Of a DNA stretch of 64,000 bases, positions 3,486 through 45,450 are shown piece after piece. Positions within the stretch are counted from its first letter, which is position 1; the number at the start of each line of letters is the position of its first letter. The position numbers and the translations under genes were made by a program. The notes below the pieces were generated by a model, which was not told the origin of the DNA, did not search any database, and worked only from the letters and a program-made list of their open reading frames with translations. Origin of the DNA: a virus (Duplodnaviria; Caudoviricetes); IMG/VR virus record IMGVR_UViG_3300032030_000073, positions 4,086-68,085 of that record; one strand, given 5' to 3'.

Positions 3486-3567
3486 CATTTGTGACAGATT
3501 TCAGAATTGTGTCACAAATGAAGGCGGGCGGATGCCGTTTGTGACAAAATCCGCGAATGTGTCACAA
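3486..3567. repeat. Two tandem dyad sites TTGTGACA-N13-TGTCACAA, 50 bp apart
   Basis: CATTTGTGACA 3486-3496 / TGTCACAAATG 3510-3520; TTGTGACA 3539-3546 / TGTCACAA 3560-3567; both spacers 13 nt. Confidence 0.85.
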
Positions 3568-3641
3568 CACGGGAGCGCGCGCAAACGCCACAAACGCGAG
3601 ACCCGGCCTTATCGCGGAAAAACGGCCTCAAATATGCCGTT

Positions 3642-3972
3642 GGGCAGGGCGGGCAGACTTCGGACATGGCGACCCTGCCCAGAAATGCGACAAAAATAAT
3701 ACGGGAATGTAAGAAAATGTGAGATATTGCACAAAAACAGCTCTGGGCAGGGTGGACATACCCCGCTATCACGCGCGTACGTGCGCGTATAAAGCCGCCG
3801 TGACGCATTATAGGCCATCGGCCAACTATAGATTTTCTCACGCGTACGCGTATATAGTAGGTCTGCCCAGTCTGTCCAATGGCTATATCGGTATAGTATT
3901 GGGTGATTTTTGGCCGATAATTGCAATTATATCGGACAGGGCAGGTCTGCCCACGGTCTGCCCACCCTGTCC
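3642..3972. repeat. Iteron-like CTGCCC/GGGCAG cluster with palindromes (candidate ori or pac)
   Basis: 8 copies at 3642, 3651, 3675, 3745, 3863, 3939, 3947 and 3958, plus CTGTCC variants; palindromes ACGCGTACGCGT and ATAATTGCAATTAT (3917-3930). Confidence 0.6.
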
Positions 3973-4355
3973 AGATTTTGGGCGTTTGGCGATTTTGTGT
4001 GCGAAGAGCGGCAATTTGATTTTTGGCAGCGAGAGCGACGGTTTTGGCCGCTCGCGCTGGTATGAGGCGGAGGGCGGAGCGCATCCCCTAATATACCCCT
4101 AATATGGTACGCGCGTGCGCGTGGGCGTAGCGCGTGCGCGACATAGGGATGAAGATAGTAAGAGGAAGGGTTGGGAATTGATCGGTGGTGGATTTGACGC
4201 CCTGGGCGCCGCCCCGCGCTGGATGACGGGGGAGCGGGGGCCGGGATCGGGCGCAGAGCGTGCGCGGCCCGGGCCGTTATAATGCGCTTGTTTATATTTG
4301 TATATTGGCGAAATTGGGAGAAATAAGAAAAGTGAAATTTTTTGCGGTTGCCCCC

Positions 4356-4384
4356 TTGCGCGGTGGCCGTGGATTTGATATACT
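4356..4384 (+). promoter_or_regulatory. Sigma70-type early promoter
   Basis: TTGCGC-17 nt-TATACT with extended TG and an AT-rich UP-like tract at 4321-4345. Confidence 0.8.
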
Positions 4385-4407
4385 GTTGGCGTTCCCCCGT
4401 GATGGGG

Positions 4408-4527
4408 CTTGCGAGCTAGAAGGCGCAAGGCATGAAGCGAACACAACCGATTTTAGCCGGTTGCACGTCGGGCGAAAGCCCCCTTCTAGCGTGCAACCGG
4501 CTAATCTGCTAAATGGAGCTAGAAGGC
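4408..4527 (+). ncRNA. Structured leader / antisense-RNA switch, copy 1
   Basis: Hairpin CTTGCG-AGCTAGAAGG-CGCAAG; 15-bp perfect stem 4453-4467/4490-4504 with inner GGGC-GAAA-GCCC hairpin and bulge CCTTCTAGC; GAGCTAGAAGGC repeated at the RBS. Confidence 0.68.
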
Positions 4528-4528
4528 C

Positions 4529-4882
4529 ATGGAAGCGAAGAACGAGACGGCGGGAGAGACCGCGACGGCGAGCGGGGCGCGGGTGCGCCTCGATGACATC
4601 AGGGCGGAGCAGATCGCATTTTTGCCCGATTATGTGATAGTTAGGGGGCAGCTGTACTATCGTATTGTATGGACATATGCGGGCGAGGGTGACAACCTGG
4701 AGCGCGTCGGCTGGGGTTGGATCAACCTCGCCGGGCTGCCGCAGTGGGCAACGCCCGGTTGTGGCTCTGCGCGTCGTGGTGCGTTTGTTTTGGGCGACGT
4801 GCACCGGCGTGGCGCGGCCAACACTCGCCACGGCTGGGATCTGCTGATTGATTCCATTTCGGAAGAGGGGAGGGCCGAATAA
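4529..4882 (+). CDS. Hypothetical early protein (N-terminal TAGETA motif)
   Basis: 117 aa, first ORF after the promoter; stop overlaps the next ATG. Confidence 0.65.
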   Translation: MEAKNETAGETATASGARVRLDDIRAEQIAFLPDYVIVRGQLYYRIVWTYAGEGDNLERVGWGWINLAGLPQWATPGCGSARRGAFVLGDVHRRGAANTRHGWDLLIDSISEEGRAE

Positions 4883-10036: not shown

Positions 10037-10065
10037 TAGACAAACGGCGGCGGGCGTGGTATAAT
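10037..10065 (+). promoter_or_regulatory. Sigma70-type promoter
   Basis: TAGACA-17 nt-TATAAT with extended TG. Confidence 0.8.
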
Positions 10066-10080
10066 GCCCGCCGCTTTTTT
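10047..10080 (+). terminator. Intrinsic terminator overlapping the promoter
   Basis: GCGGCGGGC/GCCCGCCGC 9-bp stem followed by T6; the loop is GTGGTATAAT. Confidence 0.75.
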
Positions 10081-10101: not shown

Positions 10102-10413
10102 ATGAAATCCCAAAAGCCGAAGCTGACCCCGGAGGAATTGAGCCGCATCCGATCTGAGGCGGGACGGAGAGGCGCGCAGGTCACGCGCGAGCGCGGGCAC
10201 TTCCGGGGCGGACGCCCGAAGGGATCGCCAAACAAGGATCCGGGCGTCCCATCGCGGACGCTGACCGTGCGCCAGTCCGACTACAACGTTTTCGTGCGCT
10301 GCGCGAACGCCGCCGACAAGCCCATTGTCTCGTTCATGCACGACGTGGCGGAAAGTCTGAAGAAGAAGAACCCCGCGATCTTCGCGCCGGACGCGCAGAC
10401 GGTGAGGATGTGA
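10102..10413 (+). CDS. Putative ribbon-helix-helix DNA-binding protein with basic GRP-rich N-terminus
   Basis: GGRPKGSPNK followed by beta-strand RTLTVR and two helices (SDYNVFVRCA, IVSFMHDVAESL). Confidence 0.5.
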   Translation: MKSQKPKLTPEELSRIRSEAGRRGAQVTRERGHFRGGRPKGSPNKDPGVPSRTLTVRQSDYNVFVRCANAADKPIVSFMHDVAESLKKKNPAIFAPDAQTVRM

Positions 10414-10437: not shown

Positions 10438-10466
10438 TTGACCCGCGCGGCGGGGCGTGGTACAAT
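10438..10466 (+). promoter_or_regulatory. Sigma70-type promoter
   Basis: TTGACC-17 nt-TACAAT with extended TG. Confidence 0.82.
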
Positions 10467-10485
10467 GTACGCCGTTTTCGGACAA

Positions 10486-10620
10486 CAGGAAGTAGAACGC
10501 CTGCCGAGAACCGAATCGCGGAATCCCTAAACCACGATTGCCCGCCCGAACGGGTCTGTGCGTCCGCGCACACGTTCTACCCCGTTCGGCGCGGGTTTTA
10601 TCATGCGAATGGAAGTAGAA
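10486..10620 (+). ncRNA. Structured leader / antisense-RNA switch, copy 2
   Basis: Hairpin CAGG-AAGTAGAACG-CCTG; stem CCGAACGGGT/ACCCGTTCGG (10546-10555/10579-10588) with inner TGTGCG-TCCG-CGCACA hairpin and CGTTCTAC; GGAAGTAGAAC repeated before ATG 10624. Confidence 0.68.
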
Positions 10621-10623
10621 CCC

Positions 10624-10962
10624 ATGAGCAACAGAGAAAAGACGGCGGGAGAGACCGCAAATGCAAGCGCGGCGGGTGCCGCGAAGTTCACAGGAACCGG
10701 CTACATCGCGCGGATCGGCATCGACCGGGAAGGCAACTACTGGCTGGCGGACGACGGTAAGGGCATGCTTTCGAGGGAGCTTGTCAATCAAGATGGGACG
10801 CACGAAATAACGCCAGACATCTGCAAATGTCTGTTTTCGTCGCCGTTCGAAGCGTTGCGTGCCGCTTTCAACACGCGAAATGACTGCTTGATGAACATGT
10901 TCCCGAGGGTCGTGGCAGTTCGGATTGAGGCTACCGTCGTCAAGGAGGTGCGCTATGTCTAA
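10624..10962 (+). CDS. Hypothetical protein (TAGETA N-terminus; paralog of next ORF)
   Basis: 112 aa from ATG 10624. Confidence 0.65.
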   Translation: MSNREKTAGETANASAAGAAKFTGTGYIARIGIDREGNYWLADDGKGMLSRELVNQDGTHEITPDICKCLFSSPFEALRAAFNTRNDCLMNMFPRVVAVRIEATVVKEVRYV

Positions 10963-25193: not shown

Positions 25194-25629
25194 AATCTGC
25201 GTCTATAGCAACTGGGACGGAAATGAAGTCGCAGATCGCGCAAAGCGTTTGAAGAACGACATCAAGGCGTTTGCGAAGATGCGGAATTGCGCGTTCTGGA
25301 CGGAGGGTTCCGACAAGGACTCAACTCATTGCATCGTCGTCCGCAGTTTCATGGGAGACATCGAGAGCGGTCTATACATCGAGAACGCGCGGATAGAAAA
25401 AACGGTCTTTGGATGGTGCAACGAAGTGGCGGCATTGTGCAAGGACGATCCGGACGAGGGCGACGGAGAGTTTGAGCACAAGACGATGAGGGTTGAAATC
25501 TGCGACTTGGAGAACGATGGCGGGTTGCAGGTAATCTGCTATGACAAGAAAGGAGAGGACATGGGAATCCGCGTCCTGCCGATTTACAAGCCACTGGAGA
25601 TTGAAAGCGAGGCCGAAGATGGCGAATAA
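25177..25629 (+). CDS. Hypothetical protein
   Basis: 150 aa, RBS GGAGG. Confidence 0.7.
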   Translation: MELTTEICVYSNWDGNEVADRAKRLKNDIKAFAKMRNCAFWTEGSDKDSTHCIVVRSFMGDIESGLYIENARIEKTVFGWCNEVAALCKDDPDEGDGEFEHKTMRVEICDLENDGGLQVICYDKKGEDMGIRVLPIYKPLEIESEAEDGE

Positions 25630-26356
25630 AAAATACGAGTTCACAGGCGAGACCCGATTAGTCGAAGGCCGAACCCTCCACAGGATTCGCGCGATCATCA
25701 CTTTTTCGCATGTAGAAGTTGGCGAAATCGGCGGGTGGATTGAGACTGAAAGCAATCTATCGGTGTCCGGCGACGCGAGGGTGTACGGCAACGCTTGGGT
25801 GCACGGCGACGCGAGGGTGTACGGCAACGCTTGGGTGCACGGCGACGCGAGGGTGTACGGCTACGCTTGGGTGCACGGCGACGCGAGGGTGTACGGCGAC
25901 GCGAGGGTGTACGGCAACGCTTGGGTGTCCGGCGACGCTTGGGTGTCCGGCGACGCTTGGGTGCACGGCAACGCGAAGGTATACGGAAACGCGAGGGTGT
26001 CCGGCGACGCTTGGGTGTCCGGCGACGCTTGGGTGTCCGGCGACGCGAGGGTGCACGGCGACGCGAGGGTGTACGGCGACGCGAGGGTGTACGGCAATGC
26101 GGATTACATCGTCGTAAAGAACTGCTGGAGTTCGATGCGATGGTTCACATACACGCGGTCAAACAGGAAGTGGAAAGTCGGGTGCTTCTATGGGACAGGC
26201 GATGAGCTTATTAAAAAAGCATACGCCGACAGCGAGAAGTCTGGGAAGTGCTACGAGGCGATTGTGCGGGCGGTCGAGGCGATTGAAGCGGCGACGAATG
26301 AGAAGGAGGCCGAAGGTGGGGAACAGGAGGAGGGCGAAAATGCGACGCGCAACTGA
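25619..26356 (+). CDS. Hexapeptide-repeat (left-handed beta-helix) phage protein
   Basis: KKYEFT...TLHRIRA...GEIGGWIE N-terminus, 18 x G[DN]A[RW]V[YHS], C-terminal VGCFYGT. Confidence 0.85.
   Translation: MANKKYEFTGETRLVEGRTLHRIRAIITFSHVEVGEIGGWIETESNLSVSGDARVYGNAWVHGDARVYGNAWVHGDARVYGYAWVHGDARVYGDARVYGNAWVSGDAWVSGDAWVHGNAKVYGNARVSGDAWVSGDAWVSGDARVHGDARVYGDARVYGNADYIVVKNCWSSMRWFTYTRSNRKWKVGCFYGTGDELIKKAYADSEKSGKCYEAIVRAVEAIEAATNEKEAEGGEQEEGENATRN
25769..26092 (+). repeat. 18 tandem 18-bp coding repeats
   Basis: GGCGACGCGAGGGTGTAC / GGCAACGCTTGGGTGCAC-type units. Confidence 0.92.
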
Positions 26357-32435: not shown

Positions 32436-32953
32436 ACAAATCCTATAACATGAACATCGACACCGGCGAGAAGACATGGCTCACCCCGCCGCACATCATC
32501 GAAGCCCTCGGCCCGTTCGACCTCGACCCGTGCTGTCCGCCGACGATGCCGTGGCGCACTGCGACGCGCATGGTGCATTGGCCGGAGGACGGCCTGAATG
32601 TGGACTGGACAGGCAAGCGCGTTTGGTGCAATCCGCCGTACGGGCGCGACGCCGTGCCGTTCCTCCGCAAGATGGCGGAAAACAAGACGGGGGGTGGGAT
32701 TTTGCTTATATTTGCGCGGACTGACACCTCCGCGTGGCAGGACTATATATTCCCGTACGCAAGCGGCGTTCTGTTCCTTCGCGGGAGGCTGCGCTTCCAC
32801 AGGCCCGACGGAACGCAAGGAGAGACGGCTACGGCGCCCTCTGCGCTCGTCGCGTACTTGGATCGGGACTTCATGCGTCTGCGCGAGAGCGGGCTTAGAG
32901 GCGCGTTTTTGCGCGTCTCGAGTTATGCTTTAGGCGGCAGTATCGCGAAGTAA
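32432..32953 (+). CDS. Phage DNA N6-adenine methyltransferase (phage Dam-like)
   Basis: WLTPP, FDLDPC, VWCNPPYG, ARTDT.W, LFLRGRLRF. Confidence 0.9.
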   Translation: MNKSYNMNIDTGEKTWLTPPHIIEALGPFDLDPCCPPTMPWRTATRMVHWPEDGLNVDWTGKRVWCNPPYGRDAVPFLRKMAENKTGGGILLIFARTDTSAWQDYIFPYASGVLFLRGRLRFHRPDGTQGETATAPSALVAYLDRDFMRLRESGLRGAFLRVSSYALGGSIAK

Positions 32954-34131
32954 GCCTCGCCCTCCGCGCGCAGCTCCACGCCGTTGTAGTTCCGCGCGCG
33001 CACGTCGTCCGTGTTGCCGACTATCGCCGTCAGCGCGTTCGCGTCGTGGTGAACGGCCTCGAACATCGTGATGAACGTATGACGCCCCGCGTTCTTCGTC
33101 AGCTTCGCCTTCGCCGCCGACGCCGCGTCAACGAGGTGCCGGCGGAACTGCTTGTTCCTCGTGGTGGCTCCGTCCATGAAGTCGAACGCGCGCATCCACG
33201 CGACGGCCTGCTCGGGGATGGTGAACGCCCTCGGCTTGATCCCCTTGCTGACGCCCTTCGGGATTCCAACGCGGATCGTGCGTTCGTCTATGCTTATCCT
33301 GATTGCGTGCTCGCCGAGTGGAGCGCGGTCGATTTCGCTCTGGCGCATCCCGCAGAAGAACGACAGGATGGCGCATGCGAGGTCCGCGCGTCCGCACGGA
33401 GAGTCGCGCCTGTTCCAAAGCTCGCCGAACAGCTTCTTCACGTCCTCCGCCTTCATGTACTCCGGCTGCCGGTACGGAATGACAATCTTCTTCATCCCGT
33501 CCAGCGGGTTCTCGCGAAGGTACTTCTGCTCGACGTTCGCGCACCACGAGACGAACGCTTTGATGTTGCCGAGGTGGTTGTTGTACGTCACCCACGAGCC
33601 GATGTCGCCCTGCCTGTAGAAGCCGTCCACAAGGTACTTCTTGACTTCCGGCGCGTTGATGTCGGACACGGGCCTCGCCTCTCCGAACGCGCTCACGAAC
33701 GCTCCAACGCGCAGGCGCACGTCCTTCTTGTACGGCTCGCTCTTGTCCTGCACGGCCTTCGCGTAGCCGGCATACGCCTCGCCAATCGTGACGGACGGCG
33801 TCTCCTCCCTTTCAGGCTCGCCCGCGAGCACGATCTTCGCGCACTCCACGAGCGTCATGCTACGCCCGCTCTGCGCGATCATGTCAATAGCCTGCTTGGC
33901 GTCCATCGCCTGGTATCGCGTCAGCACGGCCCCGGCCTCGCCGCTCTGGTCAAGCGTCTTGTAGAACTCGGCTATCTTCTGCTTCAGCCTCTTCTCGTTC
34001 GTCGCGGACTTGCGCACCGGCTTGCCCGTGAAAGGGTCTGTTCCGAAATACGCCTCGTAGATGGCGTACCCACCCTTCTGGACCCTCGCCTTGACCGTGG
34101 CAAGAGCCTCGTTTTTCGGCAAAAAACTCAT
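32923..34131 (-). CDS. int: Tyrosine integrase
   Basis: FFCGMRQSE (R), K in the beta hairpin, KNAGRHTF (His-to-Asn variant of HxxR), RNY (Tyr); N-terminal arm and core-binding regions; adjacent attP. Confidence 0.9.
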   Translation of the reverse strand: MSFLPKNEALATVKARVQKGGYAIYEAYFGTDPFTGKPVRKSATNEKRLKQKIAEFYKTLDQSGEAGAVLTRYQAMDAKQAIDMIAQSGRSMTLVECAKIVLAGEPEREETPSVTIGEAYAGYAKAVQDKSEPYKKDVRLRVGAFVSAFGEARPVSDINAPEVKKYLVDGFYRQGDIGSWVTYNNHLGNIKAFVSWCANVEQKYLRENPLDGMKKIVIPYRQPEYMKAEDVKKLFGELWNRRDSPCGRADLACAILSFFCGMRQSEIDRAPLGEHAIRISIDERTIRVGIPKGVSKGIKPRAFTIPEQAVAWMRAFDFMDGATTRNKQFRRHLVDAASAAKAKLTKNAGRHTFITMFEAVHHDANALTAIVGNTDDVRARNYNGVELRAEGEAYFAILPPKA

Positions 34132-34229
34132 TTTCAACTCCTGTTTTTTGCACCGATTCCTTTGCGAAAAACTTACGAGAAACCGAAGTTTACTCGCAAG
34201 AAACCTAATGCTTGTTTTTCATGCCGCAT

Positions 34230-34533: not shown

Positions 34534-37500
34534 TCACTTCCGGCGCGAACGGCGAATCTTGTCCAGCAGGATCGACTTCTGCCGTTCGATCTCGTTTGTC
34601 AGCGATGCCGTTGGCGTGCCGCCCTTCTTCTCGATGTCCTTCGCCTTGCGCTCAAGCCGGTTGACGGCCTTGATGCGCGCGTCGATGTCGCCGCGCACGG
34701 AATCGGCCATGAGCGGGCTTTCAGACTTCATGCCGTCAAGCAGCTCCTTCCTTTCAGACTGCGTGAGTTCCGCGTCCTTGCTGATGGCGTCGTATGCCCT
34801 CTTTTCTTCCAAGAAGCGGTTGACGGCGTTGTCGTAGGGCTTTCGGTCGTATGTCGAGCCTCCAGCGCCGAGAATCGACAGCGGAACCGTGACAAGCGAT
34901 TTGCCGACGCCGTTCTGCACGATCTGGTCCTTCACGTCATCGAACGTTAGCGGGACGAGCATTTCCCAAACCATATTGCCGACGCCGTACTCTTCGCCCA
35001 CGTAGTCCTTGCCTTCCCAGAGAGCGACAATGGTAGACGCCGACGGGGACAGCTTGCCTTGCAGATAGCGCCCGATCGCACCCATGGTCGTCGGACCGTT
35101 GAAGTCTCCAAACTTCATCACGCGTCCCGTGCTAGAGCGCTTGGACTTCGTTGCCAGCTGATGCACAAGCCTGTTGAACGTCGATTCGCCGCCCGTAAGG
35201 TCTATCGTAGTGTTGCCGATCTTCGGAGAGGCTATCATCATCATCTTCTCGAACCAGTCGGCCTGCGAGAAGTCGTACTTGTCGTCGTCGTCCGAAAACA
35301 GCCATTTGAGGAGCGAGCCGATGGCAAGCATCGCGACGGTCGATCTCAGATGCTCGCGAAGACCGATCTTCGCCGCCGTCTTGCGCTCGTCGTTCGACAC
35401 CTTATCGAACGAACCGTCGGCGTTCTTTATCCCCTTCGCGACGAGCGGATGCCAAATGTCGTATCCGACGGCGGACTGGACGCGGGAAATGGCGAGCTGC
35501 GGCGCCCAGAAGATGTCGTTCACCCACGCCTTCTGCAACGCCTGGCGGCGCTCCTTCGAGAGCGCGGCGGAGCCGTTCCAGATGTTGATCATGTCGGCTA
35601 TCATCTTCTTCTGCCACGGCGTCGCGCCACCTGGAATGCCGTTTACGATGGACGTGTAGAGGTCTGCGGACATGGCGTTGAGGTACGTCAGGTAGTGACG
35701 TTCGCTCTTCAGCATGAACTCGCCGAAGAGCGGGATGTCCGTGATGGCGTACTCCTTGCCGAAAATCTTCACTTTGTTGCGCTCCATGCCGTGGAACATC
35801 TCGACGTCGCGGTCGCTCTGCGCGTCCACTTCGCGGAGGTGAAGTCCGAACTTCTTGACGGCCTCCTGTACGGTCGGGTCGGACAGAATCTCCGTGTTCA
35901 CGTCAAGTAGGCTCGCCTCGGAGCGCGCCGCCGTCCACGCCTTGCCGAACGACCGCGCCGCCTTGACGGGATGTCCGAGCGTCATGCGCGCGGCCTGCCG
36001 AAGGACGGCGGAGAAGTCCATCGTGGCACGAAGCGCGCGCTGGGCGGTCGTGACGAAGCGCAGGAAGTTGACGCCCTTGCGGACGAACGTCGGCACGGTG
36101 GCGTTCTCCGCCTCAAGGCGAAGTTCCGCCAGCTTCTGCCGTCCGCGCTTCATCTGCTCGCCAAGCTCGTCGTACCGCTTCTGCTGGTCTTTCGTCATAG
36201 GCGGCTGCGGCTTCTTCTGCGGACGAATGTCGCCCGTCGCGATGCGTTCCGCGAGACGCGCCAGGGCCTTTTCGCGGCTTGCCATCTTCCGGGCGTTCAG
36301 CGCCTCGATCTCCTCCGGCGTCATGCCGAACGCGTACTTAGCGTTCTTCAGTTCGCGGATGGATTCGCGCACCTGCCTGATGCGGTCGCGCAGCGTCTCT
36401 ATCGTCTCCGAGGTGACGCCCGGACGCTGCGGACGCTTCGAGAAGTCGCCGGACTGCGCACGGGCGAAGTCCTCCATCGCGCGTTCGAGCTCTTTTGCGA
36501 GGAGTTTTTCCGTGAGCGCGATGCGCTGCGCGTCGGTCATCTCGCGCGTCGTTCCGAAAAGTTCGTCGTACTGCTTCTGCAACTCGTCCTTCTCCGCGCG
36601 GAGTTCGCGGACTCGGATGTCGTCAACCACCTTCCGCTTCGGGACTGGTATGCGCTCGCCGGTCTCAATGGCGCGTTTCAGATCAGCGATCCTGTTTTCA
36701 AGGTTCCGTTTTATCGTGTCGAGCGTGCTTTTCAGCCGCCGCTCGTCACGTCCGGCGTCGGGGACTTCCGCCTTTCGGTCGCGCACCCTCTTCGCCCACT
36801 CGCGCTCGTCCTGCGTGGGCTCGTCGCGGATGGGGCCGGTCGCGGGCGGCATCGTGTTCGTCTCGTCCATCCAGTCGATCTGACGCTTCGACCTCGAAAT
36901 GTTGCGGAGGCTGTTCATCAGCCGCTGCGCGTCATAGCGGGACTGCTTGTAGTTGTGCCCGAAGCCCGTCAGCGCGTCACGCACCTGGTTCGCGTCCACG
37001 CCGTCCATGAACGGCGAGATGTCCCGGACAATCGCGTCTATCACCTCTTCCTCGGTGATCTCCGGGTTGAGGAAGCAGTGGTACTCGCCGATCTGGCGGA
37101 GCCACTTGCCCCACGACGGGTACTGCTGGTCGGAAAGCCCGATGAGCGTGCCGCCCGTCTCGGCCGCGCCGACCTCGATCTGCGTGAGCGCGTCCTGGTA
37201 GTTCTGCGCGACCTTGCGCGCCACGTCGCCCACCTTGCGCTCCGTGGCCTTGCGCACCTTCAAGCCGTTCTTCGTCTGGTCGATGACCTTCTTGGAGAGC
37301 GGGATAAGCCGTTCCGTCGCAAGGCGCAGACCTTCCTCGTCAAGCCCCTCGAAGAGCTTTGCGAGGTCGCGTATCCGCGCGTTCATTTCTGGCGTAATCT
37401 TGTCAATGCCGCCAAGGGTCTGCGCGATCCTGCCCGCGATTCCCGCATACGAATAGTCGTGCGCGGCGATGAGCGCGCGGTTCGAGCGCAGCGCGCGGCC

Positions 37501-40500
37501 CTGCTCGGACGCGCCCATCATCGCCGCCTTGCCGGCCTCCGCCATCTGCGCCTTGGCCTGCGCCAGCTTCGCCGACACCTGCCTCAGCTCGTCCCGCAGC
37601 TCCGGCGTCTTGTTCATGTCGTCCTCCGGGATCGCCGCAAGTTCGGCGCGGCGTCTCTCCAGGTCGTTCACGGCGGCCTGCCGCTGGCGGAACAGCACAT
37701 TCAGCGCGACGTTCTCGTAGTCGCGCGTCGGGCGCGGGAACTTCGCCACGGCGCGGGAGAGCTTCGCCATGTACGTGGGGTTGGAGAGCAACGTCTCCAC
37801 CTGCCTCCACATGTCCGCGTCCGTCTTCCTGACGTGCGCGGGTGGCTCCATGCCCGCCGCCTTCAGCGCGGTGGCGATCTCGTCGTTCGTCATGCCGTAC
37901 ACCTCGCGCATGATCTTCTCGGTGGGCGTCTTGTCCTCGCTTGCGGCATACTCCGCCTCGGCGGGCGTAAGCTCCGGCGTGTCGAAGCTGACAAGAGATT
38001 CGCCGAATGGGCCGCGAGGGTCTTCAATGTCGCGTTCGATAGCTTTGTACGCATCGTTTATCTTCTGCGCGACGCGATTAAGCCGTTCAAGGTCTTCTCC
38101 CTTAAAGTTGCCCGACTCTACAAGGTTCTTCAACGCCTCCGCGAACGGCCCGGCCTCTCCTGGGCCGATCGCATACGGATCGAAGTGCATGGAAATGCTG
38201 GCTTCGCCGGATTCGATGGAGTCGAGGATTTCCAGCAGGTCGCCGTTTGTGTACCAGTCAATTTCCTCACGGTCCTCACCAATTCCGTTCCGTTTAAGTT
38301 CTTTCAGCTGGTCGCGCAGTTCCTTCGCGTCCTCGCGATAATACGTCTCTCGTTTTTTGTAATAGTCCACATTGAGCGGATCTTCTTCGGCTAATCTTTT
38401 TTGCTCCCTCGCCTTTGCGTTATCCTCATTGATGCGCCGCTTGAGGTCACGCGCCTCAGATTCCGACGGCGTGTCGTCGGCACCCGCTTTGATATTCCGC
38501 TTCGCAGTCTTGCGCAGGGCGGCGATGTCGTTCAGCATTTGTTCATCATGCGTGGAAATCCACCACAGAGAATGGTCAAGGCGTTCTGGAACCGACGAAT
38601 AATCGGCGCTTAGTTCCGGCGTGTCGAATTGCAGGACGCCGTCGGTCCACTTGTGGTCCACGCGGATGTGCTCGTCCGAGAACGCGACGTAGTTCCACCC
38701 CGCCTTGTCGCCGTCCTTAAGAGTTTTGCCATACGAGTCGACCGGGTACTTCACACCGTCGATGCCGGCTCGCGCAAGGAACTCGGAAGCGGCTTTGGGT
38801 CTATTTGACGTTCTCGGGAAGAACTGGCATGTCAATTTGTATAGGTCTTCGCCTGTCTTGACATTGATGTTTATGTAGCCACCGTTCAACGTAACCGGCT
38901 GATAATAATGTCCGGTTCCATCGTCCGCCCACAGAAGAATCTTACCGTCTTCGTCCGTCCTTCCATATTCATCTTCACGTATTACCCCCTCTTCTTTGGC
39001 TTTGTCTATGATACGATTCACAAGTTCTTGCTCTACCGGCTCGTACCACTTCAAGAGGTGGCTCTCGTCGCCCGGCGCCCGGTTCGTGAAGAACGTTTGC
39101 TCGTAGAGGTGATTGTTTGTACCATACCCTTTAGGGATTATCGCATCATGCCAAGTCGACTTCTCAAGAATGTCTTTAACAACTTCCAAGCCTTCGGCAA
39201 ACTTGTCGTGAGCAAGGCTTTTATGCTTATCAATGGCTTCGGAGACTTCTTCGATAGCCTTTTGTCTTGATGTCTGATTCCACCCGTGCTTTCTCAACTT
39301 CTCACGTGCAGAATCAATCGCCCATTTGGGAAATCCATTTTCGGGCATATCATAACCAGGGTCTTGGGCCAATCCAGATTTGCGAAGACTATCATCATGC
39401 GCATACCCCTCCGCGACGCCGCGCTCTGTGCTCCCGTAGAGCCCCCAGCCGTAGACCTGGCTGCCCTCGCCCGTGCCGATGTACTTAACGCTCGGCCCGT
39501 CGTCCACGCCGCCCTGGCGCGAGCGGTTCGCGTAGTCCGCCGCCGTGCCGGTGTAGATGCCGGGCGTGTCGAAGTCCACGCCGCCCTGCAACGCCCGGAC
39601 GCGCTCCGCGAACTGCGCCTTGAGTTCGGCGCGCTCCGCGTCCGTCTTCGCCGCCCTGTACGCCGCGTCGATGCGCTGGAGGGCGGGGTCGCTGCGCATG
39701 GCCTCCCTTGTCTGCTCCGCCACTCCGCGCCGATATGCGTTGCGCTCCTCTCCCGTGAGCGTGTCCTTCATGCCCGTGGCGGAAATGTCGCCCATCGGCA
39801 CGGTGCGCGTCTCGACCTTCTCCGGCGCGTAGCGGTTCGCGCCCGGCGTGCGCACCTGCACGTCCGCCGTGCCGTCTGCGTTCGCCTTCAGGAACGTGAC
39901 GCGCTGGCCGTCCTTCGCGCCCTTCAGGAACACGCGGTCGCCGCGCTTGAACGCGGGCTTTTGGGGTTTTTCGCCCGTAAAAACGGGCGACACTGGACGC
40001 GTCGCCGTAGGTTTTGCGGCTGGCGCGGCGTTTTCCGCCGACTCCCCACCCTGTGGCGCGCTTGCGGGCGCTTCGTCCCACGAATCGTCGTACTCGCCGA
40101 TCTCGTCAAAAGCCTGATTGGTGGCGCGCCTGACGGCCTCCTCGTATGCCGCGACCTCGCGCTGACGTTGACGGGCAATCTCGCTTCCGTTCGCGTAGTA
40201 TTTCCCAGTCTTGGGGTTTATCACCGAGTGGAACGGCGCTTTCTTCTTGAGTTCGTCGGCGATCTTCTTTGCCTCGGCCATCTTGGCTTCCCAGTCGGCC
40301 TTTGAAGTCGCCTTCGTGAATGTCTTTGGGAACTTCACGTCCGGCAGTTCGACTTCGTACTCCCTGCCGTTCTGGACGATTCGTACAGATTCGCCGTCTC
40401 GCGTCGTTTTCACCACCTGTGGCGCGTCCGCGCTCTTCGGTGGCGTAGTCGTGCCATCCGCGCGCGGCGCGCTTGCAAGGGCGGCTTTGGCGGGTTTCCG

Positions 40501-43500
40501 CGCCGCCTGCTTGCGCTGCCATTCCGCGAAACGCCCGTCGGTGTCCTTCATCTTGTACTTTTCAAGCCACGCAAGGTATTCTGCGGGGCGTTCCGCAGCC
40601 TTCTCCTTCGCGGCGGGCGCGGTCGCTTCACTCTCCGCGATAGGCGAGAAAAGGTCCTGCTGGCCGGTCTGGCCCAGGTCCATCTCCGGCTGCACGTTCA
40701 CCGCGCCGCTGCCCTTCAAGGGCGCTTCCTGGCGCTTCTTGATCTCCGCCTTTTCGCGGCGCTTCTTCTCCTCGGCGGTTATCTGCTCTGCCGTGACACT
40801 TTCGAGCGAGAGTTGCGGCGCGATGCCGAGGTCCGCGTCCATCTGCGCCTTGTCCGCGTCGTCCAGGCGGATCGCGTTCTCCCAGTAGTTCGCCCTCTCC
40901 ACCGCCTTGTCGCGCGCGGCGGCGAGCTGCGCCTTGTCCTTCGGATCGGATATGCCAAGCTCCTTCGCATAGTCCTTGTTGAGGTCGAGACGTCCGCCCT
41001 TGCGCATGGCCGTGCGCAGGTTCTCCGCGATGCGCTTGTACTCGTTCGCCTTCTTCGCGCGGTAGTCGGCGCGCTTCTCCTCCTGCTGGAGCAGAGCAAC
41101 ATCCTCCTCGCTCGTGAAGAGGTCGAGCTGCGTACCGCTGTCGGCCTTCGGCGCGTTCTTGCGGTTCTTCGCCTCCTCTGCGAGCGAACGCGCGAGGATC
41201 GCTAGCTTCTTCCCGCGAACGCCGTCAAGCGCGCGGCGCACGAGGATGCGCTGGAGCGCGGCCTGTTTCGGCGCGGCGTCCGCGATGATTGCGGCCTGCT
41301 CGGCGGAGATCAGTCCGTCTCCGCCTGTTCCTTCCCAGTCGATTGCGCCTCGCGTATCGTCTGTCGCATTTTGGACAATGCCGAACGCCATGCGGCCTTT
41401 CTGCCTGTTGAGGATGCCGGAGGATTTTGCGTCCTCCTCGCTGAATCCCGATTCCTCGAAGAATCTAACATAGTCTTTCACCGTTCCTTTCTCGTCGAGA
41501 ATGTTCGCAACCGCGTCGTAGAGACGCATGTCCTCCGGCGTGTAGCCGTCGGCCTCGCGGAATATGCGCGCGTCGATGTCCTTCCAGCCGGAGCGTTTCG
41601 CCGCGTCCAGCCTGTGGCGGCCCGTCACGATTTCCATTGTGCCGTCCTTGCGCTCGTAGATCGCGATGGGGTTCTCGGCGTTCTCGTAGTATTCGCCAAG
41701 CTCCTGCCCCTTCACGACGCCCGTCTTCGGGTCGGCGTTCTCCTTGAACTGGGTGTCGGGAATCTTGATTCCGTCAACCGGCACGCGACGGCGCTCGCCC
41801 TTGCGGTGCATGACGTTCCAGAAGCTGCTCTCGCTCATGGGCTGCCGCCCCGCATCCCCGCCGATGGTATCGGCGGGCGCAGGACGCTCGGCGGTGTTCA
41901 AATTTTGACCGCCGTTGTCAGATTTTGACGGCTCTACCACTCCCGCATCTGGCGCTTGCGCTCCCGGCTCCGCTCCCGCTTCGGGTTGCGGCGCTTCTTG
42001 CCCCCGCTCTTCGCCCTGTTCGGGCTGCGGCTGTGCTTCATCGGTTCCATTCCTTGCTTCATCCGTTACTCCTTCTTCGTATCTCACTCCGCTGTCACCC
42101 GGCAGCGTTTCAAGCTCGTTCTCGCCCTGCGCGCCCTGTTTCTCCGCCTCGGCGAGCATCACCTCAAGGTCGGACTGGTCTATCGGCACGTTCTCGCCCG
42201 CGTCGCGGCGGCGCTGGTTCAGCTCGTGCTTCCGCTTCTCGTACCACGTCGGCTGGTGGAGCCGTCCCTGCGCGTAACGCGCCATGGCCTCGCGCGCGTA
42301 CTCGTCCATGGACATCGCGGCGGCGACCTGCATCCTCGCCGTGTCCTCGTCCATGCCGGCCGCAACGAATCTCTGCACGGCCCTCTCCTGCTCCGCGAGA
42401 ACGAACTTGCTGAAACCTTCCGCCTGCGCGTTCTGGATGAACTCAACCGTGTTCGCGCCGCGCCCCGTGGCGCTCTCCACGCCCTCGTGGCCCGTCGCCT
42501 CGTGCGCAAGCACGCGCTCCATTTCAGCAGGAGACGGCACGTTGTCGAGGATCACCACGATATGCCCGTCTGGCGTGTGGAAGCCGCCCGCGCCGGGCTG
42601 CTTGAGGCTTCCGTCTGCCTTGAAGAGCTGGTCGGCGCGCGTGATGCCGTAGATGTTTCCGCCGTCGTTGATTGCCTGCGCAACCTGCCAGCGCAGCGCG
42701 GCCTCTGACGGGATGGAAACGACGTTTCGCCCAGCATACTGGCGCTGTACGAGCCCCGTGAGATACTGCGCCTTCTGCGCGTTGTCCGCGTCCATCGACT
42801 GGTTGCGCACGACTTCCTCGTCTGCCTTTTTCTGCGCCTCCTCGAACGAGTACGCGGGAACGGCGTCAAGTCCCCGGAAGTCGTTCATCACGTAGAACGT
42901 GCCGTCGCCCTGGTCCACGATCGTCACGCCGTGCGCGGCGTCGGTCATCGCGTTCATCGGCGCCTGCTTGCCGTCTGGCGTGAAGCGCATCATCTGCTGG
43001 AACACCGGCTTGCCATCCTCTCCGGTCTGTATCGTGAACCTCTCTGGCGCGATACCGCGCTGTTCAAGCGACTGGCGCATCTTCAACCCGTCGCGCGCCG
43101 TCAACTCGTCAACAGCGGCCCTCATCGAATAACCGAGGTTCTTCACTTCTTCCTTCAGCTTGTCCGGGTCGGCGGAATACTGTTGCCACATCTCAGTCAG
43201 TTTTTGCTGCTGCTCCGGCGTGAGCGTGGAGATCGTCTCGTCTGAAATGCCGGAGCGCTTCAGCGCCATGCGGATGTCGCGGCGGGCGTCCGCGGACGAT
43301 ATGTGCTGCGCGACACCCTCGCTCGTGCTCTTCACCGCGCCGATCGCAAGCTGGGCTACGAGCCCGTAGAAGATGTCCCACTGCGTCTGCCAGTTGAGCT
43401 GGTTGTCCTTGAAGTCCTGCCATTCCTGCGCAAGCCCCTTGTATTCAGAAGACTTCCCGTCAAGGCCAATCACCTTCTCGAACGCCTGCACGTTCTCTTC

Positions 43501-45450
43501 CGCAAGTTCCCCGAGCGGGGAGTTGATCTGCGTCATGGCGGTGAAGTCCTGGTACGCCCTGTTGATCGAGCGCAAAGCCTGTCCGGTTTCGGACGCCATG
43601 AACTTGTTGAACCTCTTCGTGCCGAACTCCCTCACCGCGCTCGGCGTCGCCTTGCCGAAAGCCCACCCCGTCGCCTTGCCCGCGCCGCGCAGAAGCCCCA
43701 TCGTGACCGATTCAAGCCCCACCTCCACGGCGGTGTCGAATATCGCGCCGCCGATTGCCTTGTACGCGGCTTCCTCCTCGTCGTCGGGGGCCGCGACCAT
43801 CTTGAACTCGCCGTTGTCGTCAAAACCGTACTCGGGCGTGACGTTCTCCTGGTAGCGGGACATGGCCTCCGTCGCGACAACAGGCACGGCGGAGCCGAGC
43901 ATGGTGGCCGCGCGCACGGCCTTTGCGCCCCAGTTGAGCGCCTGCGCGCCCTTGAACATCGCACCGCCGGGGAGCGCGAACTCCAGCGCGTAGCCGCCCG
44001 ACTCGATGCCGCCCTTCACGATCTTGTCGAGGATGCTCTGCTCCGTCGCGGACAGCTTTCCGCCCGCGTCGAGCTTCGCGATTGCGTCAAGGCGCAGCTC
44101 CTCTCCCGCGTCGTGCTGGATGCGGCCCATGAACTCCGCGTCGTTCTCGTCTGGACGCAGCGATTCAAGCGGGTTCCACGGCTCCAGTCCCGCCTTGCGC
44201 GCGGCGTCGCGGTATTTCTCCGCTTCCGTCTTGCCATCGTAGCCGTCCAGCTTGCCTTCGTAGATGTTGGAGAGGTGTCGCGTGCGCTCGCGCTGCTCGT
44301 TCGGGGCCGAGCGCCCCGCATACGGCATGAGCCTGTCGTACACGGCCTTCGCCGTGCCGAGCCAATCGTCGGTGTAGCGGCGCCTGTCGCCAGTCTCCGC
44401 GAGCGCGCCGAGCCGGACCTGCTCGAACGGCGAGCGCTCCACCTTGCCCTCGCCCTTGCCCATCATGCGGTCGAAGTCCTCGTCGCGGACGTGCAGCTTG
44501 CCCGCCACCATCGCGCCCTCGGACGAGACGCCTTCCGTCTCCTTGAACACGGGCTTGCCGTCGTCACCAACGCCGGTGAACTCCATCAGGCGCGCCGCCT
44601 GCCCGGCCTCGCCCGTGAACGGCCCGTCTCCCTCCTTGTGGTAGACGGCTATCGCGTCGCCGGGCTTGATGGCGTTGCCGTCGGCGTCCTCCAGCACGTC
44701 TCCAGTGAGGAACAGCTCGGGCGCGACCTGCGTGGTCTTGTTTTCCAGCTCCCGCTTGCCGTAGACCGGGCCTGCGATGGACTGCCCGAGCAGGACATTC
44801 TCGTACTTCTTGGTCGCCATCTGCGCGGCCTTGTCGCCAGACTCCTTGACTCGCGCCTCGCGTTTTCTGCGCGCGCGTTCGCCGCGCACGCCTGGGTCGT
44901 GGCGGATTTCGTCGCCCATGTCGTCCCAATGCGACTGGATGTATTCGTTCCAGCCTTTCTGGTAGGCTTTCTGGTGCTCGTCGTGGACGGCACGCGCCAT
45001 CTTGCGCGCCGAATCCTCGTCGTCGGCCTTGCCCCAATGCTCGCCCGTATCGGCGTAGTGCCTGACGGCATCTTCCTGTGACAGCTCCTTGCCGTCAACG
45101 ACCATGGGGATTACCGCAATCTTGCCGTCGCGGTCTTGCACGAGCATTGACTTGGTGGTTGAGTACCCGCTGACCTTGCCGTTCGCGCCGCGCCGGATGA
45201 GCGGCTTGCGCCCTTCCGTGCGCAGATTGCCGCCCCATTGGTTCGTCTGGCCATCAGGCATGGTGGCTGCGCCGCCGTCGCCAGACTCCCATGTGGGGAC
45301 GGGTTGTGCGTCCGCAGAAGCTGACGCCACGGAACCAGTTTCACCAGACGGCCCACCCTCGTCGTCCTCTATCTCGAAACCGCCAAACGCGGAAGAAGAG
45401 GACGGCTTCTTCTCGTCGTCCTCTATCTCGAAACCTCCAAAATCTGCCAT
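34534..45450 (-). CDS. Giant (3638 aa) polyvalent internal-virion/ejection protein: metallopeptidase-like HExxGH, ParB-like and ART-like domains
   Basis: LAHEATGHEG (about 42490), IVTGRHRLDAA (about 41610), IGTGEGSQVYGWGLY...GIDGVKY...NYVAF (38640-39560); last gene of the late operon after two other ejection-type genes. Confidence 0.85.
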   Translation of the reverse strand: MADFGGFEIEDDEKKPSSSSAFGGFEIEDDEGGPSGETGSVASASADAQPVPTWESGDGGAATMPDGQTNQWGGNLRTEGRKPLIRRGANGKVSGYSTTKSMLVQDRDGKIAVIPMVVDGKELSQEDAVRHYADTGEHWGKADDEDSARKMARAVHDEHQKAYQKGWNEYIQSHWDDMGDEIRHDPGVRGERARRKREARVKESGDKAAQMATKKYENVLLGQSIAGPVYGKRELENKTTQVAPELFLTGDVLEDADGNAIKPGDAIAVYHKEGDGPFTGEAGQAARLMEFTGVGDDGKPVFKETEGVSSEGAMVAGKLHVRDEDFDRMMGKGEGKVERSPFEQVRLGALAETGDRRRYTDDWLGTAKAVYDRLMPYAGRSAPNEQRERTRHLSNIYEGKLDGYDGKTEAEKYRDAARKAGLEPWNPLESLRPDENDAEFMGRIQHDAGEELRLDAIAKLDAGGKLSATEQSILDKIVKGGIESGGYALEFALPGGAMFKGAQALNWGAKAVRAATMLGSAVPVVATEAMSRYQENVTPEYGFDDNGEFKMVAAPDDEEEAAYKAIGGAIFDTAVEVGLESVTMGLLRGAGKATGWAFGKATPSAVREFGTKRFNKFMASETGQALRSINRAYQDFTAMTQINSPLGELAEENVQAFEKVIGLDGKSSEYKGLAQEWQDFKDNQLNWQTQWDIFYGLVAQLAIGAVKSTSEGVAQHISSADARRDIRMALKRSGISDETISTLTPEQQQKLTEMWQQYSADPDKLKEEVKNLGYSMRAAVDELTARDGLKMRQSLEQRGIAPERFTIQTGEDGKPVFQQMMRFTPDGKQAPMNAMTDAAHGVTIVDQGDGTFYVMNDFRGLDAVPAYSFEEAQKKADEEVVRNQSMDADNAQKAQYLTGLVQRQYAGRNVVSIPSEAALRWQVAQAINDGGNIYGITRADQLFKADGSLKQPGAGGFHTPDGHIVVILDNVPSPAEMERVLAHEATGHEGVESATGRGANTVEFIQNAQAEGFSKFVLAEQERAVQRFVAAGMDEDTARMQVAAAMSMDEYAREAMARYAQGRLHQPTWYEKRKHELNQRRRDAGENVPIDQSDLEVMLAEAEKQGAQGENELETLPGDSGVRYEEGVTDEARNGTDEAQPQPEQGEERGQEAPQPEAGAEPGAQAPDAGVVEPSKSDNGGQNLNTAERPAPADTIGGDAGRQPMSESSFWNVMHRKGERRRVPVDGIKIPDTQFKENADPKTGVVKGQELGEYYENAENPIAIYERKDGTMEIVTGRHRLDAAKRSGWKDIDARIFREADGYTPEDMRLYDAVANILDEKGTVKDYVRFFEESGFSEEDAKSSGILNRQKGRMAFGIVQNATDDTRGAIDWEGTGGDGLISAEQAAIIADAAPKQAALQRILVRRALDGVRGKKLAILARSLAEEAKNRKNAPKADSGTQLDLFTSEEDVALLQQEEKRADYRAKKANEYKRIAENLRTAMRKGGRLDLNKDYAKELGISDPKDKAQLAAARDKAVERANYWENAIRLDDADKAQMDADLGIAPQLSLESVTAEQITAEEKKRREKAEIKKRQEAPLKGSGAVNVQPEMDLGQTGQQDLFSPIAESEATAPAAKEKAAERPAEYLAWLEKYKMKDTDGRFAEWQRKQAARKPAKAALASAPRADGTTTPPKSADAPQVVKTTRDGESVRIVQNGREYEVELPDVKFPKTFTKATSKADWEAKMAEAKKIADELKKKAPFHSVINPKTGKYYANGSEIARQRQREVAAYEEAVRRATNQAFDEIGEYDDSWDEAPASAPQGGESAENAAPAAKPTATRPVSPVFTGEKPQKPAFKRGDRVFLKGAKDGQRVTFLKANADGTADVQVRTPGANRYAPEKVETRTVPMGDISATGMKDTLTGEERNAYRRGVAEQTREAMRSDPALQRIDAAYRAAKTDAERAELKAQFAERVRALQGGVDFDTPGIYTGTAADYANRSRQGGVDDGPSVKYIGTGEGSQVYGWGLYGSTERGVAEGYAHDDSLRKSGLAQDPGYDMPENGFPKWAIDSAREKLRKHGWNQTSRQKAIEEVSEAIDKHKSLAHDKFAEGLEVVKDILEKSTWHDAIIPKGYGTNNHLYEQTFFTNRAPGDESHLLKWYEPVEQELVNRIIDKAKEEGVIREDEYGRTDEDGKILLWADDGTGHYYQPVTLNGGYININVKTGEDLYKLTCQFFPRTSNRPKAASEFLARAGIDGVKYPVDSYGKTLKDGDKAGWNYVAFSDEHIRVDHKWTDGVLQFDTPELSADYSSVPERLDHSLWWISTHDEQMLNDIAALRKTAKRNIKAGADDTPSESEARDLKRRINEDNAKAREQKRLAEEDPLNVDYYKKRETYYREDAKELRDQLKELKRNGIGEDREEIDWYTNGDLLEILDSIESGEASISMHFDPYAIGPGEAGPFAEALKNLVESGNFKGEDLERLNRVAQKINDAYKAIERDIEDPRGPFGESLVSFDTPELTPAEAEYAASEDKTPTEKIMREVYGMTNDEIATALKAAGMEPPAHVRKTDADMWRQVETLLSNPTYMAKLSRAVAKFPRPTRDYENVALNVLFRQRQAAVNDLERRRAELAAIPEDDMNKTPELRDELRQVSAKLAQAKAQMAEAGKAAMMGASEQGRALRSNRALIAAHDYSYAGIAGRIAQTLGGIDKITPEMNARIRDLAKLFEGLDEEGLRLATERLIPLSKKVIDQTKNGLKVRKATERKVGDVARKVAQNYQDALTQIEVGAAETGGTLIGLSDQQYPSWGKWLRQIGEYHCFLNPEITEEEVIDAIVRDISPFMDGVDANQVRDALTGFGHNYKQSRYDAQRLMNSLRNISRSKRQIDWMDETNTMPPATGPIRDEPTQDEREWAKRVRDRKAEVPDAGRDERRLKSTLDTIKRNLENRIADLKRAIETGERIPVPKRKVVDDIRVRELRAEKDELQKQYDELFGTTREMTDAQRIALTEKLLAKELERAMEDFARAQSGDFSKRPQRPGVTSETIETLRDRIRQVRESIRELKNAKYAFGMTPEEIEALNARKMASREKALARLAERIATGDIRPQKKPQPPMTKDQQKRYDELGEQMKRGRQKLAELRLEAENATVPTFVRKGVNFLRFVTTAQRALRATMDFSAVLRQAARMTLGHPVKAARSFGKAWTAARSEASLLDVNTEILSDPTVQEAVKKFGLHLREVDAQSDRDVEMFHGMERNKVKIFGKEYAITDIPLFGEFMLKSERHYLTYLNAMSADLYTSIVNGIPGGATPWQKKMIADMINIWNGSAALSKERRQALQKAWVNDIFWAPQLAISRVQSAVGYDIWHPLVAKGIKNADGSFDKVSNDERKTAAKIGLREHLRSTVAMLAIGSLLKWLFSDDDDKYDFSQADWFEKMMMIASPKIGNTTIDLTGGESTFNRLVHQLATKSKRSSTGRVMKFGDFNGPTTMGAIGRYLQGKLSPSASTIVALWEGKDYVGEEYGVGNMVWEMLVPLTFDDVKDQIVQNGVGKSLVTVPLSILGAGGSTYDRKPYDNAVNRFLEEKRAYDAISKDAELTQSERKELLDGMKSESPLMADSVRGDIDARIKAVNRLERKAKDIEKKGGTPTASLTNEIERQKSILLDKIRRSRRK

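Follow-up and report, generated by a model that had tools for sequence, protein, structure and literature searches.

Sequence evidence for two differently coded c4-like antisense RNA leaders in the genome of a temperate caudovirus

The 64,000-nt stretch of DNA analyzed here (the window) comprises bases 4086-68085 of a viral record of 68,085 bp with direct terminal repeats, and it encodes an integrase (32926-34137), indicating that the phage is temperate. On the plus strand, a 210-nt gap that separates the end of one open reading frame (ORF) at 10413 from the start codon of the next at 10624 is filled by a structured leader, termed here copy 2. It opens with a predicted promoter at 10438-10466 (-35 TTGACC, a 17-nt spacer and a TG-extended -10 TACAAT) that matches the consensus at 10 of 12 positions and is, to judge from its sequence, a strong, near-consensus promoter of the sigma-70 type; its position would place the transcript start near 10473. 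The leader then folds into a two-tier hairpin, H1 (10474-10511), in which an outer stem (10474-10481 with 10504-10511) extends a CAGG/CCTG hairpin at 10486-10503, and the 10-nt loop of this hairpin, AAGTAGAACG (10490-10499), is present as a previous sequence-only reading had described it. Within the loop, the word X1 (GTAGAACG, 10492-10499) is a perfect 8-nt complement of a second word, X' (CGTTCTAC, 10573-10580), which forms eight unpaired bases in the 3' internal loop of P2, a c4-like RNA element at 10540-10596 (-36.1 kcal/mol, z = -4.9). P2 folds into a 15-bp outer stem (10540-10554 with 10581-10596) and an inner hairpin closed by a UCCG tetraloop (10557-10572); the long stem and its inner tetraloop hairpin had also been recognized before, and only the ends of the stem, then placed at 10541-10555/10579-10594, had to be moved. 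A U-run (TTTT, 10596-10599) directly 3' of P2 makes the element resemble an intrinsic terminator, and at the matching position most relatives (see below) have a longer run. The third site, X3 (GGAAGTAGAAC, 10611-10621), contains the pairing word GTAGAAC (10615-10621) and ends 2 nt before the ATG, the gap being filled by C's. Exact occurrences of GGAAGTAGAAC are confined to 10488-10498 and 10611-10621, with no other match in the 64 kb. The first regulated ORF (10624-10962, 112 aa) begins MSNREK-TAGETA, and a RhuM-family protein is encoded downstream of the copy 2 leader.

A second leader on the same strand, copy 1, spans 4356-4531 and has a like layout with other words, GCTAGAAGG and CCTTCTAGC. 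Its promoter (4356-4384; -35 TTGCGC, 17-nt spacer, TG-extended -10 TATACT) has in common with that of copy 2 the block (G)CCCCCTTG over the -35 region. A short 5' hairpin (4395-4407) precedes H1 (4408-4429), whose 10-nt loop AGCTAGAAGG (4414-4423) contains X1 (GCTAGAAGG, 4415-4423). P2 (4453-4504; -37.1 kcal/mol, z = -5.5) has a 16-bp outer stem, an inner hairpin with a GAAA tetraloop (4470-4481), and X' (CCTTCTAGC, 4482-4490) in its internal loop; X3, again GCTAGAAGG (4518-4526), ends 2 nt before the ATG at 4529, from which the regulated ORF runs to 4882 (117 aa). There is no U-run after P2 in copy 1, so that a terminated short RNA is doubtful for this copy. A 26-codon leader ORF in copy 1 (4432-4512) was dropped from consideration because it has no counterpart in copy 2.

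The common three-site plan bears out the claim that copy 2 shares the architecture of copy 1, and both leaders fold better than 200 of 200 shuffled sequences (z = -3.9 and -3.5). The spacing that had been given for copy 2, with TAGAA exactly 4 nt before the ATG, was in error: this motif (10616-10620) is separated from the ATG at 10624 by 3 nt, and the 4-nt gap is that of copy 1. In both copies, X' is perfectly complementary over 7-9 nt to the start-region site ending 2 nt before the ATG, and comparison of the two sequences confirmed that the two differences between the copies in loop and bulge compensate for one another. Consistent with this, the cognate X3:X' duplexes were computed at -15.6 and -10.6 kcal/mol versus -8.2 and -6.5 kcal/mol for the crossed ones, and cross-pairing between the copies was in general computed to be 4-11 kcal/mol weaker than cognate pairing, which fits a model of two independent antisense channels that would not cross-react. 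Within copy 2, X1:X' is one base pair longer than X':X3 and has a computed energy of -16.7 versus -10.6 kcal/mol. Beyond their first 12 residues, the proteins encoded downstream (117 and 112 aa) are unrelated; at the DNA level, the copies have in common an exact 19-mer, AGACGGCGGGAGAGACCGC, and its 18-nt core, GACGGCGGGAGAGACCGC (hereafter the 18-mer), starts 15 nt after each ATG, at 4546-4563 in copy 1 and at 10641-10658 in copy 2, both on the plus strand. An identical stretch of DNA followed by unrelated proteins indicates that what is repeated is the promoter together with the leader and the first codons, fused in each copy to a different gene. Searches of Pfam and PHROG assigned neither regulated ORF to a family, a scan of the whole window for additional leaders of this three-site kind yielded nothing above chance level besides the two copies, and a search of sequencing runs for this phage listed no RNA run, its single full match being a DNA run from sheep gut, which may be where this DNA came from.

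Several other features of the window were recorded along the way. Upstream of the ORF that starts at 10102, a strong promoter-like site on the plus strand (10037-10075; TAGACA, 17-nt spacer, TATAAT, 11 of 12 matches) has its -10 box inside the loop of a hairpin that resembles a terminator, with a 12-bp stem and TTTTTT behind it, such that a terminator and a promoter appear to overlap. Upstream of copy 1, TGGGCAG and its complement CTGCCCA alternate four times (at 3641, 3675, 3744 and 3863; 3641-3870 of the window), inside or beside a divergent 190-aa ORF (3512-4084, minus strand), and these sites may be operators. About 26 tandem 18-nt repeats with a six-residue period lie at 25690-26157 (plus strand) within the ORF at 25541-26356. 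Finally, a single 3638-aa ORF occupies 34534-45450 on the minus strand: Pfam gives no match to it and PHROG only a faint ParB-like one, it adjoins virion genes, with an internal virion protein gene nearby at 52173-53594, and its product is, on this sequence context, a putative giant virion-associated protein. A guess drawn from this ORF, that the phage is N4-like, was not supported by the follow-up.

Relatives of the two leaders were collected with the 18-mer as bait, in exact-match scans of viral contigs, species-representative genomes and metagenomes, and were retained when they showed a word, its reverse complement and the same word again, adjoining an ATG. A second scan, independent of the 18-mer, started from a conserved segment of the inner hairpin found in the relatives and returned further leaders, some with and some without the 18-mer. 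Together these yielded 37 non-redundant related leaders, mainly from rumen and gut metagenomes, with at least 31 distinct X words, and we sorted them into three layouts, types A, B and C. Type A comprises nine leaders, namely both window copies and GC-rich relatives; leaders of types B and C carry promoters in the style of Bacteroidota (TTTG ... TAnnTTTG). One type A leader (L124) sits in a rumen genome bin assigned to Kiritimatiellae, and our guess on this basis is that the likely host belongs to that group. In all leaders, X3 is 1-4 nt from the start codon, and in nearly every relative X1:X' is computed to be more stable than X':X3. Type B relatives additionally have a second short conserved segment, in which GUUC pairs with GAAC (helix 1), and a second canonical terminator directly after X1, which covaries (helices 3 and 4). 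Homology between orthologous cassettes stops at or shortly past the 18-mer.

Several of these loci had noteworthy surroundings. Type A relatives adjoin a tmRNA gene (L224 1-341, plus strand) or a tRNA gene (L220 3995-4082), which is consistent with integrated prophages. In a Bacteroidota-type phage, two tandem cassettes of the c4-2 type (see below) lie 2.6 kb apart (L226 3087-3314 and 5685-5912; also L250 and L247); the second of these has kept X1:X', with a G.U wobble, and has lost the complementarity of X3, so that from its sequence it may be a decayed or a constitutively open copy. In a Bacteroidales bin, a SAM-II long-loop riboswitch (RF01726, 62.8 bits; L101 156-215, minus strand) precedes a type C leader by about 300 nt and is encoded on the other strand.

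Across the 37 leaders, X1, X' and X3 change in concert: the three-site complementarity is kept as the word changes, which strongly confirms the functional loop-bulge pairing that had been proposed from the two window copies. To quantify this, we compared the longest perfect Watson-Crick run in fixed windows at X1, X' and X3 between each leader's own partners and those of other leaders of the same type, a test that was used in place of wide-window duplex-energy matrices, whose noise was too high for leaders of the GC-rich type A. Mean cognate runs were 8.1-8.2 nt in type A, 7.4 nt in type B and 6.8-8.4 nt in type C, versus non-cognate means of 4.0-5.8 nt, and the cognate mean lay beyond all 10,000 partner shuffles in each of six permutation tests. 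Pairs were counted in an alignment of 16 type B sequences (A2), with a structure that includes the pseudoknotted helices. Here, seven of eight pairs had changed on both sides in the X1:X' helix (92.7% of cells paired) and likewise seven of eight in the X':X3 helix (76.2% of cells paired). The covariation score of the whole structure was 0.357 when it contained the X1:X' helix, versus 0.162 +/- 0.010 after shuffling, and with the X':X3 helix 0.323 versus 0.160, neither value being reached in 500 shuffles; sliding the partners by 1-3 columns as a control lowered pairing to 31-42% of cells (32-41% for X1:X'). Covariation across homologs, which the sequence-only reading had named as the check on its proposal, is thus clear in both the permutation tests and the pair counts. 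The nested helices covary too.

Orthologous leaders, the most telling cases, show where these changes fall. Ten leader positions separate copy 1 from its near-identical ortholog L239, and six of these make up one dinucleotide swap at X1 (GA>AG), X' (TC>CT) and X3 (GA>AG). A second ortholog (L230) differs from copy 2 by the replacement of GTAGAAC with GCAACAAC at all three sites, and has compensatory changes also in the long stem and inner hairpin of P2. L214 and L226b/L247 have G.U wobbles in place of Watson-Crick pairs in the X1:X' helix, and the retention of these wobbles argues that the pairing takes place at the level of RNA. In type C leaders, X1 differs from X3 and both pair with overlapping parts of X', from which it follows that the conserved feature is a mutually exclusive pairing and not a repeated DNA site.

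These observations bear directly on whether the repeated words might be DNA operators for a sequence-specific protein and not RNA pairing partners at all. An 8-9-bp word that occurs near a promoter twice in direct and once in inverted orientation would suit such a protein, but close relatives have at least 31 different words, wobble positions are preserved as pairs, and the unlike X1 and X3 of type C are both complementary to X'; moreover, all sites lie downstream of the promoter and within conserved RNA folds. We therefore regard operators as a highly improbable explanation.

As pairing RNAs, the leaders find their closest parallel in the immI region of phages P1 and P7. The P1 immI record lists a1, b1, a 77-nt C4 RNA, a2, b2, icd and ant, the same order as in the window copies and with similar spacing. 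There as here, a promoter, a decoy in a small hairpin loop, a rod-shaped RNA of about 60-77 nt and a target covering the ribosome-binding region of the ORF that follows occur together, and P1 and the window phage are both temperate. In the computed fold of P1 C4, a long stem and an inner UUCG hairpin are accompanied by a' in the 3' internal loop, the very position of X' in the window copies. For c4 RNAs, a2 and b2 are described as the pairing partners of a' and b', and either a2 or b2 overlaps the ribosome-binding site (RBS) of the ant operon; upstream a1/b1 may compete for this pairing, thereby freeing a2/b2 (the decoy model), and most inner loops are of the GNRA or UNCG kind (Weinberg 2010; PMC2864571, Additional file 1). 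The inner loops of copy 1 (GAAA) and copy 2 (UCCG) match this pattern, and both copies have a rod-like RNA with a stable tetraloop and an exposed antisense word, complementarity to the RBS site, and an upstream decoy between promoter and RNA. By analogy, we read H1/X1 of copy 2 as an a1/b1-like decoy site and its X3 as an a2/b2-like target over the ribosome-binding region.

The correspondence is not complete. P1 C4 has two recognition words, a' and b', whereas type A leaders have one, in the window copies a single word of 8-9 nt, with no second recognition segment of the a' + b' arrangement; P1 regulates icd and ant, whereas the window ORFs match no known family; the window copies have an extra conserved hairpin after the start codon; and the host of the window phage, unlike that of P1, is probably not a proteobacterium. 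The window copies show no detectable similarity to the Rfam C4 family (RF01695; c4-a1b1 motif). At Rfam gathering thresholds, a scan of the window returned no family of the c4 clan (C4 RF01695, c4-2 RF02944 or isrK RF01394), and neither leader matched the C4 or c4-2 models up to E < 10; the best c4-clan score for the window leaders was to isrK, at 14.6 bits (E = 0.37, copy 2) against a gathering score of 50. Over the window and 50 related loci, the same thresholds gave no family for the window leaders or the 18-mer, and among GenBank phages the leader had no DNA match. The link to the clan comes through the relatives: the Rfam c4-2 family (RF02944, clan CL00128) matches the X'-bearing element of four of them (L198, L226, L163 and L210) with 42-48 bits, above the gathering score of 41. 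In these matches X' is placed in the loop of a second inner hairpin, whereas in the window copies it is in an unpaired 3' internal loop; the c4-2-scoring relatives of type B/D and the window copies nevertheless share the order X1/X'/X3, the spacing to the start codon and the 18-mer. The ORFs directly behind the relatives' leaders encode Bro-N proteins or KilA-N + ANT (KilAC) proteins, and these are the class of antirepressors that is controlled by c4; a role as antirepressors for the ORFs regulated in the window would rest on this analogy in cargo. Because the window copies fall below all thresholds of the c4 clan, have one word and carry cargo of no known family, we file them as a c4-like variant and not as members of an Rfam family. 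Overall, the sequence evidence supports the view of a divergent variant of the c4/c4-2 antisense leader system, one that has a single word and is present in two differently coded copies.

Mechanisms of the c4 class have been known since 1990, and the C4 RNA of P1 is a stable small RNA that acts in trans and is processed by RNase P. It is probable, in our judgment, that each copy in the window is likewise a self-contained antisense RNA module of the c4 type in the leader of the operon that it controls. The host-type promoter would give rise to a transcript that first presents X1 in a hairpin loop, then P2, a rod of about 57 nt in which a long outer stem encloses a hairpin capped by a stable tetraloop and X' is exposed in the 3' internal loop, and then X3, which repeats the X1 word between a Shine-Dalgarno-like GGA(A/G) and the ATG. 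Pairing of X' with X3 (7-9 bp) would cover positions -9 to -3 of the start region and block binding of the 30S subunit or ribosome, and pairing of X' with X1 would free the start site. Since X1:X' is at least the length of X':X3 and has, in copy 2 and almost all relatives, the higher computed stability, the decoy would win at equal amounts. P2 would be released as a stable small RNA, by termination at the U-run or by processing as proposed for P1, and, when transcription is low, as in a lysogen, accumulated P2 would silence the operon in trans; a burst of fresh leader transcripts would then supply X1 decoys that titrate P2, turning the operon on.

The U-runs that follow P2 in copy 2 and in most relatives suggest that a short, P2-containing RNA could be released, and the terminator after X1 in type B would similarly release a small RNA consisting of X1 alone. 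The same terminators invite a different explanation, in which P2, on pairing with X1, X3 or both while the leader is still being transcribed, would end the transcript early or stop read-through, so that control falls mainly on transcription and not on translation. Phage-plasmid P4 has such a layout (seqA - CI(seqB) - seqC), in which the CI RNA (seqB) acts with seqA and seqC on transcription termination. The leaders of P4 CI and of Gifsy-1 IsrK (RF01394) resemble those described here in their three-site logic, in giving short and long isoforms from a leader terminator, and in a small RNA that acts on its own read-through transcript, although IsrK of Salmonella Gifsy-1 activates and does not repress. 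Type B, with its covarying terminator right after X1, fits this kind of control, but the constant proximity of X3 to the start codon points to occlusion of the ribosome, no terminator directly follows X3, and copy 1 is without a U-run after P2; we therefore consider control of the P4 type unlikely.

Covariation by itself does not distinguish an RNA that acts in trans from one that acts in cis: because X1 and X' are on one molecule, a purely intramolecular switch fits the covariation equally well. In such a switch, no RNA would be released, and X1, X' and X3 would compete within one transcript, for instance by acting as a timer during transcription or as a lock that shuts once the 5' end has decayed, with the diversity of words due to neutral compensatory drift. 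The presence of all three sites on one transcript, the default-ON fold implied by the computed advantage of X1:X' over X':X3, and the missing terminator after P2 in copy 1 all agree with this. Against it, substitutions between near-identical orthologs cluster at the three sites (the six of ten noted above), as though a new specificity had been selected, which would matter only in trans; one genome holds two copies with distinct words; and the homologous element of the relatives belongs to a family of trans-acting antisense RNAs. On balance, a switch confined to cis strikes us as quite unlikely. The concentration of substitutions in the X sites of near-identical leaders suggests selection on specificity and hence action in trans, as in the c4-type module that we favor, and with different words in the two copies, each RNA should act in vivo only on its own operon. 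By analogy, the rapid, concerted change of words among relatives looks like the divergence in immunity specificity between P1 and P7, which Citron and Schuster, in 1990, reportedly traced to a few compensatory bases.

The 18-mer has a distribution of its own. It folds into a 4-bp stem (GCGG/CCGC) with the loop GAGAGA, and it occurs exactly in 74 distinct viral-contig contexts and at more than 120 genome loci spread over many phyla, in most cases a short way 5' of where a gene begins; its flanks are without conservation beyond about 3 nt. The phages and prophages that have it unchanged beside gene starts belong to at least eight phyla. Natural variants maintain the stem by compensatory change (GCCG/CGGC, GCAG/CUGC) and have either GAGAGA or GAAAGA as the loop. 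In the leaders it is translated as T-A-G-E/K-T-A, with the covarying pair at two third-codon positions, and elsewhere it is found in untranslated leaders beside a Shine-Dalgarno sequence; from this combination, the RNA hairpin seems to be the selected feature. Leaders of the c4-2 type without it exist, and so the 18-mer is optional. Rfam has no family for it across the window and 50 related loci, a literature search returned only an unrelated paper, no antisense partner was found in the same genome, and it is not enriched on plasmids. Similarly, no neighboring protein is common to more than 22 of 84 loci, and the cluster with that number consists of ORFs overlapping the motif.

Several candidate explanations for the 18-mer were discarded. 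A pure peptide signal (TAGETA) does not suit its many occurrences in 5' UTRs or in a closed frame; a mimic of the sarcin-ricin loop, an RfaH ops-like site and a complement of the 16S rRNA 1400 region each failed on register; and a tmRNA mimic was set aside as the occurrence in tmRNA is on the same strand and in one lineage, the Acidimicrobiales. In this lineage, the 18-mer lies in the pseudoknot region of the tmRNA gene (RF00023; L091 1199-1216, minus strand, L104, L128 and about 30 other Acidimicrobiales loci) and is followed by two similar units (...GGCAAAGACCGC and ...GGGAAAG...), which may be a coincidence or a shared structural motif. In Pseudomonas-type phages (L014 2320-2398, L113 1048-1128 and L147 5016-5095), it is situated about 95 nt downstream of a Proteo-phage-1 RNA (RF03044), and in one of these (L113) a terminator and tRNA genes come after it; there the 18-mer may be part of a larger non-coding RNA.

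Taken more broadly, promoter, c4-like switch and first codons with the GAGAGA-loop hairpin could be regarded as a portable expression cassette, which phages of several phyla attach to varied cargo, with the X word as its rewritable address and the hairpin as a separate, hitherto undescribed RNA element read by host machinery that is conserved universally, be it the ribosome or RNA polymerase. This is a speculative reading that we put forward tentatively and would not expect to hold in full; if true, there would be many mutually blind regulatory channels, two of them in the window phage. The search also brought to light a very widely conserved small hairpin near phage gene starts for which Rfam and the literature searches offered no account. 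The leaders would extend antisense immunity control in the style of P1 c4 and c4-2 to temperate phages of rumen bacteria, with sister forms in phages of Bacteroidota, and they represent more than 30 natural pairing codes of 7-10 nt on one scaffold, with predicted orthogonality: a library that may be useful both for studying how immunity specificities diversify and as a source of RNA-based parts for gene control.
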